Source: Escherichia coli
Lineage (GTDB): Bacteria > Pseudomonadota > Gammaproteobacteria > Enterobacterales > Enterobacteriaceae
Length of the DNA stretch: 23,863 nt
Assembly: GCF_003334255.1 (NCBI RefSeq)
Contig: NZ_QOWU01000065.1
Reading direction: 5' to 3' (one strand)
Positions 21,089 to 21,268 of this stretch are shown piece by piece. Positions within the stretch are counted from its first letter, which is position 1, and each line of letters opens with the position of its first letter. The translations under genes and the position numbers were made by a program. The notes beneath the pieces are model-generated. The model ran no database searches and was not told the origin of the DNA. It was given only the letters and a program-made list of their open reading frames with translations.

Positions 21089-21100
21089 TTAATTTGCCGT

Positions 21101-21144
21101 CGTTCAGGTTGCAGAAGTGTGGTTATTGTTCTGCAACCTGAACG
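21101..21144. repeat. Perfect 16-bp-arm inverted repeat 13 bp downstream of iolD
   Basis: cgttcaggttgcagaa (21101-21116) and ttctgcaacctgaacg (21129-21144), loop gtgtggttattg; no immediate U-tract, T-rich DNA begins about 15 nt later. Confidence 0.85.
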
Positions 21145-21268
21145 ATACAGCGTCAACGCATTGTTTTCTTTTCAGAACGGCAAAATAAAACGATCCGTTT
21201 TTCGCAGAATTACGGATGCTTTTCTTTTGCGGTTTTAAATTTACTATTCATGAGATTAAGAGGTACGA

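Follow-up and report, generated by a model that had tools for sequence, protein, structure and literature searches.

A perfect palindrome downstream of iolD in a Salmonella-type myo-inositol island, read as a probable RNA stem-loop at the iolD 3′ end

Among described systems, the closest to the structure considered here are intrinsic terminators and the hairpins that stabilise messages at or between genes. An intrinsic terminator is a G+C-containing stem-loop on the sense strand right after a stop codon, with a stem typically of 5-14 pairs, a short loop of 3-8 nt and an adjacent U-tract; in systems with an E. coli-type RNA polymerase, termination is poor at hairpins that lack a U-tail. The malE-malF REP stabiliser of E. 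coli and the pufBA hairpins of Rhodobacter are intercistronic or 3′ mRNA-stabilising hairpins, and their barrier role needs no U-tail. Somewhat further off stand tandem or compound terminators and attenuators, in which successive hairpins precede the next gene, as well as the IS200 left-end hairpin terminator and the subterminal hairpins of IS200-IS605 elements, which are perfect or nearly so. A substrate of RNase III needs about two turns (~20 bp) of uninterrupted double-stranded RNA, and quasi-palindromes can arise by template-switch mutation, according to the Ripley model, which has been studied in E. coli. The gene whose end is at issue here encodes IolD, which is essential for growth on myo-inositol, and the long lag phase and bistability of the Salmonella inositol island have drawn attention to its regulation.

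The stretch of DNA analysed (the window, 23.9 kb) is the Salmonella myo-inositol utilisation island. Thousands of Salmonella enterica entries have an IolG2 identical to its own, and over its full length the window shares 99.9% identity with the island carried by 7 of the 5,426 complete E. coli genomes. The annotation of the island comprises iolR, iolT1, iolT2, iolB, iolA, reiD, iolE, iolG1, srfJ, iolI1, iolC, iolD, iolG2, an MFS gene and several IS copies; copies of IS110, IS200, IS91 and IS66 flank the Salmonella-type island and break it up. A second version, ~82% identical, is known from a single complete E. coli genome, that of Z1323, and from numerous draft contigs of the species. Searches with the IolG2 protein returned only these two close lineages, here called the Salmonella type (the window) and the E. 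coli type (Z1323 and its relatives), and the E. coli-type IolG2 shares 90% amino-acid identity with that of the window. The features of the iolD-iolG2 region are collected in Table 1.

Table 1. Features at the iolD-iolG2 junction, in window coordinates
Feature	Position	Strand	Basis or remark
iolD, 3D-(3,5/4)-trihydroxycyclohexane-1,2-dione acylhydrolase	19148-21088	+	ORF list; RefSeq annotation of a 100%-identical E. coli locus
HP1, whole RNA stem-loop	21099-21146	+	18 pairs (17 Watson-Crick and a closing G·U), 12-nt loop
HP1 5′ arm TCGTTCAGGTTGCAGAA	21100-21116	+	Inverted-repeat search
Conserved 5′-arm core AGGTTGCAG	21106-21114	+	Identical in the diverged E. coli-type island
HP1 loop GTGTGGTTATTG	21117-21128	+	Extra pairing and a GCGC tetraloop instead in the E. 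coli-type lineage
HP1 3′ arm TTCTGCAACCTGAACGA	21129-21145	+	Inverted-repeat search
Conserved 3′-arm core CTGCAACCT	21131-21139	+	Identical in the diverged E. coli-type island
Small GCG-UCAA-CGC hairpin, then first U-rich run TTGTTTTCTTTTC (21161-21173)	21150-21173	+	Sequence, folding
HP2, long imperfect hairpin	21174-21236	+	Folding, RNAalifold, pair counts; terminator/attenuator-like
Conserved block just upstream of iolG2	21242-21263	+	Two-lineage alignment
iolG2, D-chiro-inositol 2-dehydrogenase	21269-22291	+	ORF list, RefSeq annotation, protein search

The spacer between the two genes is 180 nt long (window 21089-21268). Eleven nucleotides past the iolD stop codon (21086-21088), in what by position would be the 3′ untranslated region of iolD, begins an inverted repeat whose arms of 17 nt are 100% complementary and lie 12 nt apart. 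An earlier note on this DNA had described the palindrome correctly as perfect and with that spacing, and had put its arms at 16 nt, which is 1 nt too short; in RNA, G21099·U21146 adds an eighteenth pair to the structure, hereafter HP1. The folding energy is -30.0 kcal/mol on the plus strand, in keeping with the very stable stem that the same note had envisaged, and -28.0 on the minus strand, a small gap, and for the fold of the spacer as a whole z is -6.6 relative to dinucleotide shuffles. No perfect inverted repeat in the window is longer, and by our own arithmetic ~5e-5 such repeats (17 bp, perfect, loop of 3-40 nt) would be expected in random sequence as long as the window. The 17-mer arm, searched for with as many as 3 mismatches, has no match in the window beyond the two arms themselves (0.08 expected from shuffles). 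The absence of an adjacent U-tract, already remarked upon before, is confirmed: the 10 nt past the stem read TACAGCGTCA, no U-tract is reached in the first 15 nt, the first U-rich run 3′ of HP1 begins only at 21161, and a consensus terminator scan of 20500-21800 called no site. On the HP1 region Rfam 15, searched up to E 10, gave nothing at gathering score, the only matches being sub-threshold chance ones to miRNA-precursor hairpins (E 0.03-4). An ORF of 95 aa does run through HP1 on the minus strand (20869-21156), and one of 93 aa is called at the same place in locus L088; it is not a conserved gene, the lineages differing within it by frame-breaking indels of 2, 4 and 1 nt.

Between the two island lineages, the two 9-nt cores of HP1 are identical at 18/18 positions, against 95/162 (59%) in the remaining spacer (Fisher p = 1.3e-4), and the distance between them is 16 nt in the Salmonella type and 12 nt in the E. 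coli type. The upper stem is paired in either lineage, though the letters differ: AA/UU in the one and GAGG/CUUU, including two G·U pairs, in the other. The outer 6 bp, by comparison, pair in the Salmonella type and are unpaired in the E. coli type, and the three changes in the 5′ arm of this lineage-specific outer stem all create complementarity. The E. coli-type hairpin is a structure of 13 bp with a GCGC tetraloop (4 nt); GACG and 6-7 U come after it, and it is terminator-like by the scan. Its energies are -20.2 on the plus and -15.3 on the minus strand, so that the sense fold is the stronger one in both lineages. Among the Salmonella-type sequences (the window's own and 12 further loci, in four spacer haplotypes) HP1 has no polymorphism, with 5 sites varying downstream; this invariance is consistent with constraint, though by itself not significant. 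RNAalifold and explicit pair counts retain HP1, a second hairpin (HP2) and one long-range helix, and 99.4% of cells are paired in these counts versus ~50% with slid partners, the structure having been derived from the same four sequences. Within the HP1 core, two lineages with no compensatory change between them do not strictly separate constraint on structure from constraint on sequence.

Set beside canonical terminators, HP1 resembles them in being a G+C-containing sense stem-loop right after a stop codon, and differs from them in the perfection and length of its stem (17-18 pairs), in its 12-nt loop and in what follows the stem. As to the stem itself, it is of the kind expected of a terminator, at -30 kcal/mol, 11 nt past the stop and at least as stable on the plus as on the minus strand. 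Where a terminator has at least 5 U in 8 nt starting 0-2 nt past the stem, HP1 is followed by UACAGCGUCA, which lacks such a run, and its loop exceeds the usual 3-8 nt, whereas the E. coli-type ortholog has both the U-run and a loop of 4 nt and passes the scan. Because the U-tract is gone and the stem extended in the Salmonella type, we read HP1 there as a 3′-end structure; alone, by analogy with other hairpins that have no U-tail, it should terminate poorly. The likeness to the malE-malF and pufBA stabilisers lies in the arrangement, that of a stable hairpin between a pathway-essential upstream cistron and an accessory gene; the malE-malF element, however, is one of the multi-copy REP family, and HP1 is single-copy.

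On balance, then, HP1 is probably a sense-strand RNA stem-loop that marks and protects the 3′ end of iolD and attenuates read-through into iolG2. Its very stable stem-loop would fold once RNA polymerase has left iolD, and it would be descended from, or a sister to, an intrinsic terminator of which the sister lineage keeps the hairpin and the U-run, the Salmonella-type lineage having lost the adjacent U-tract and extended the stem to 18 perfect pairs. The perfect complementarity of the outer 6 bp might stem from a single template-switch event, as the Ripley model would account for, which bears on mutational origin and not on function. The folded HP1 could pause polymerase and block 3′-to-5′ exonucleases (PNPase, RNase II), thereby stabilising the iolD message, and the downstream U-rich run and HP2 would then be where transcripts are released or their reading on into the accessory iolG2 is attenuated. 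Since iolD and iolG2 are reportedly co-transcribed, partial rather than full termination would fit. That iolD transcripts end or are protected at HP1 is what this reading predicts; a search of the accessible literature for HP1 or for mapped iolD 3′ ends found no mention of them. The earlier suggestion of a terminator or RNA-stabilising stem agrees with the conserved core, the U-tailed terminator form in the sister lineage, pairing that is kept by way of G·U and the stronger sense fold, and its terminator half sits less well with the missing adjacent U-tract and the 12-nt loop of the Salmonella type. HP1 would thus work like a terminator-derived 3′ stabiliser or an intercistronic hairpin, and it is most likely an ordinary feature, a relative of terminators that has no U-tail and not a new type of element. 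If the reading is right, HP1 would set the share of iolD message that survives and the extent of transcriptional leakage into the accessory iolG2-MFS genes, adding a post-transcriptional detail to the well-studied Salmonella inositol island rather than a new principle. It would also provide a tidy case of a single hairpin that has the form of a canonical terminator in one of two sister islands and is longer, without a U-tail, in the other.

Hairpins at the end of iolD are not confined to the two close lineages. A scan of genome contigs with IolD returned distant loci only (49-80% identity) and, unexpectedly, no Salmonella. In about 40 of these 79 loci, for which only iolD ends were scored, the best spacer stem begins no more than 15 nt past the stop. 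Seventeen loci of Pantoea or Mixta have a GC-rich hairpin and a T tract at the iolD end, before iolG; three Providencia loci have stems of 10-11 bp at the iolD stop without T tracts, and two Xenorhabdus loci have stems of 13 and 18 bp some ~40-60 nt downstream of iolD. All of these hairpins are unrelated in sequence to HP1, and their presence at many distant iolD ends marks a hairpin at this place as a recurrent, ordinary feature.

Several other readings were weighed, two of which take the palindrome as DNA. That HP1 belongs to a repetitive or mobile element family (REP-like, a MITE or an IS end) or, as the earlier note had proposed, is a fragment of such an element could draw on the copies of IS200/IS605, IS91 and other IS in the window and on an 11-nt core that recurs in palindromes of unrelated metagenome organisms, one of them a two-copy element in a high-GC metagenome; the copy number makes it extremely improbable. 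In BLAST searches at E <= 10 the 56-nt palindrome matched only the 7 island-bearing genomes among the 5,426 complete E. coli genomes, at one site each (the two places listed per genome are the two strands of one site), and none of the other 5,419; the 241-nt spacer likewise gave one place per island-bearing E. coli genome, and the sole match among 72,556 plasmids was a Salmonella record carrying the iol island itself. In these E. coli genomes and plasmids there is thus no family of the sort for which a genome-wide search had been suggested, nor the multi-copy consensus that defines REP/BIME. A core pattern, AGGTTGCAGRA-N4-20-TTCTGCAACCTGA, had 0 matches in viral contigs and matched eight stretches in metagenomes. 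Four of these, all the enterobacterial ones, are the same iolD-iolG2 junction; the other four are unrelated hairpins from organisms of 42-71% G+C that have in common with HP1 only the core demanded by the pattern and, on order-of-magnitude reasoning, are plausibly chance among very many hairpins. HP1 shares a (near-)perfect hairpin with the IS200 and IS200/IS605 ends, and an IS200 copy is present in the window, but it has no similarity to the window's IS copies or to anything else in it, no transposase and a single copy. An attC-like site was considered as well and rejected on visual inspection, since neither the GTTRRRY/RYYYAAC cores nor the order in which they come agree with one. Almost as doubtful, and very improbable, is the protein-recognition palindrome of the earlier note, that is, a duplex DNA site where a dimeric protein, for instance IolR or some other regulator of the island, would bind. 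Perfect symmetry and 9-nt half-sites kept in sequence speak for an operator, as does the in vitro binding of H-NS, and weak binding of CRP, to the spacer (PMC10783015), though via AT-tracts or other motifs. Against this, the half-site with at most 1 mismatch occurs 6 times in the window versus 5.0 expected and in none of the other iol promoter spacers, and both the 4-bp shift in half-site spacing between the lineages and the G·U-type changes, which preserve RNA pairing and break DNA symmetry, fit an RNA hairpin and not a symmetric operator, which is therefore disfavoured.

The remaining alternatives concern RNA or deny HP1 a function. An efficient, non-canonical intrinsic terminator, with transcript ends within a few nucleotides of 21146 and iolG2 expressed from its own promoter only, is the least weak of them and still unlikely: there is no U-tract within 15 nt, the loop is 12 nt long, poor termination by U-less hairpins is established knowledge for E. 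coli-type systems, and the conserved, U-tailed HP2 further on would be redundant. What keeps it under consideration is the very stable stem directly past the stop codon, the canonical version in the sister lineage and the separate P_iolG2 that the Salmonella literature gives to this spacer (PMC10783015). It is improbable, on the evidence of conservation, that HP1 is functionless, a leftover of recombination that joined the iolD and iolG2 modules or of a former terminator, its perfection due to template-switch mutation. In line with such an origin are the composition step at HP1, the nearest plasmid-borne relatives of IolG2 in Lactobacillales (~60% identity) and the outer 6 bp, which are lineage-specific and whose three 5′-arm changes all make complementarity, as one templated event would; against it, and in favour of constraint, speak a core kept at 18/18 against 59% in the surrounding spacer, pairing kept in both lineages and the invariance of HP1 across Salmonella-type haplotypes. 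Lower still, and quite improbable, we place a processing site for RNase III or another double-strand-specific nuclease that would uncouple the stability of iolD and iolG2. A perfect helix of 18 bp in an intercistronic spacer comes near the accepted size, but at no more than 13 pairs, G·U in two cases, the helix of the sister lineage is short for this enzyme.

Under the preferred reading, that of a stem-loop at the iolD 3′ end, the sequence between HP1 and iolG2 would take part as well. The U-rich run at 21161-21173 is too distant from HP1 to be its U-tail and has a polymorphic site at 21167. The two flanks of HP2, A-rich on the 5′ side (CAAAAUAAA) and U-rich on the 3′ side (UUUUCUUUUG), pair with each other and enclose a short apical stem; the A and U tracts are kept in sequence across both lineages, and the apex has changed in sequence yet still pairs. 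Plus- and minus-strand energies of HP2 are -23.2 vs -19.5 in the Salmonella type and -16.4 vs -7.1 in the E. coli type. Within the Salmonella-type spacer no other structure has a U-tail and a canonical look, and from its predicted fold HP2 looks like a true U-tailed terminator or attenuator ahead of iolG2. Two successive conserved hairpins, HP1 and then HP2 with its A and U tracts, recall tandem or compound terminators and attenuators, but no antiterminator pairing is evident in the spacer, because HP1 is too stable to switch.

Just downstream of HP2, the conserved block includes TACTAT (21242-21247), a possible -10 element, and the iolG2 Shine-Dalgarno sequence AAGAGG (21258-21263). The iolD-iolG2 spacer has been treated as P_iolG2, with H-NS binding upstream of iolG2; H-NS binding and weak CRP binding to the spacer have been seen in vitro (PMC10783015). 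The long-range helix predicted by RNAalifold joins the U-rich run (21162-21172) to the Shine-Dalgarno region of iolG2 (21258-21268) and has two compensatory changes between the lineages; in single-sequence ensembles its probability is only ~0.16 and other partners are preferred. Sequestration of the Shine-Dalgarno sequence by the U-run, which RNAalifold suggests, was accordingly set aside as too weak in those ensembles. A broader and rather unlikely proposal is that HP1, HP2 as a U-tailed attenuator and the long-range helix act together as a composite post-transcriptional gate. In such a gate HP1 may serve as an exonuclease barrier or as a target of RNase III or ProQ, and transcripts reading through from the iolD promoter may express iolG2 poorly, those from P_iolG2 fully.

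The earlier note had also placed a boundary between GC-rich and AT-rich modules at HP1. G+C is 56.1% in iolD (GC3 64%), 38.3% in the spacer, 46.1% in iolG2 (GC3 50%) and 51.7% in the MFS gene (GC3 63%). The closest plasmid-borne relatives of IolG2 outside the enterobacteria are IolG proteins of Lactobacillales, at ~60% identity. Both the lower G+C and GC3 of iolG2 than of iolD and the MFS gene and these relatives suggest that iolG2 had an origin separate from that of its neighbours. The proposed boundary holds in so far as iolG2 is compositionally distinct, and the G+C step, though real, is modest.

Other hairpins came to light in the course of the analysis. The runner-up to HP1 among the inverted repeats of the window is a perfect 13-bp hairpin, AGCGGAGAATATC-CAGA-GATATTCTCCGCT, at 4038-4067, 16 nt past the iolT2 stop and, as with HP1, without an adjacent U-tract; canonical U-tailed terminators stand at the end of iolT1 (668-640, minus strand) and at the end of iolB/RssR (5036-5014, minus strand). 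The iolT2-iolB spacer, in which the Salmonella literature puts the sRNAs STnc1740 and RssR, contains an IS200 copy (window 4434-4998, minus strand), and an Rfam match to STnc490 (146 bits, 4875-4998, minus strand) adjoins the IS200/IS605 tnpA ORF at 4434-4916. Finally, the two-copy metagenome element is a palindrome with 18-bp arms, AGGTTGCAGAATCYGTCG-N6-CGACRGATTCTGCAACCT, found at L092 4095-4138 and L095 409-452 in one metagenome of ~70% G+C; the 11-nt core that it has in common with HP1 is probably a coincidence. Both copies lie at the 3′ ends of unrelated ORFs ending in ...NEVAESV(D/E)xxTDSAT, as if a REP-like element had been fused to them.
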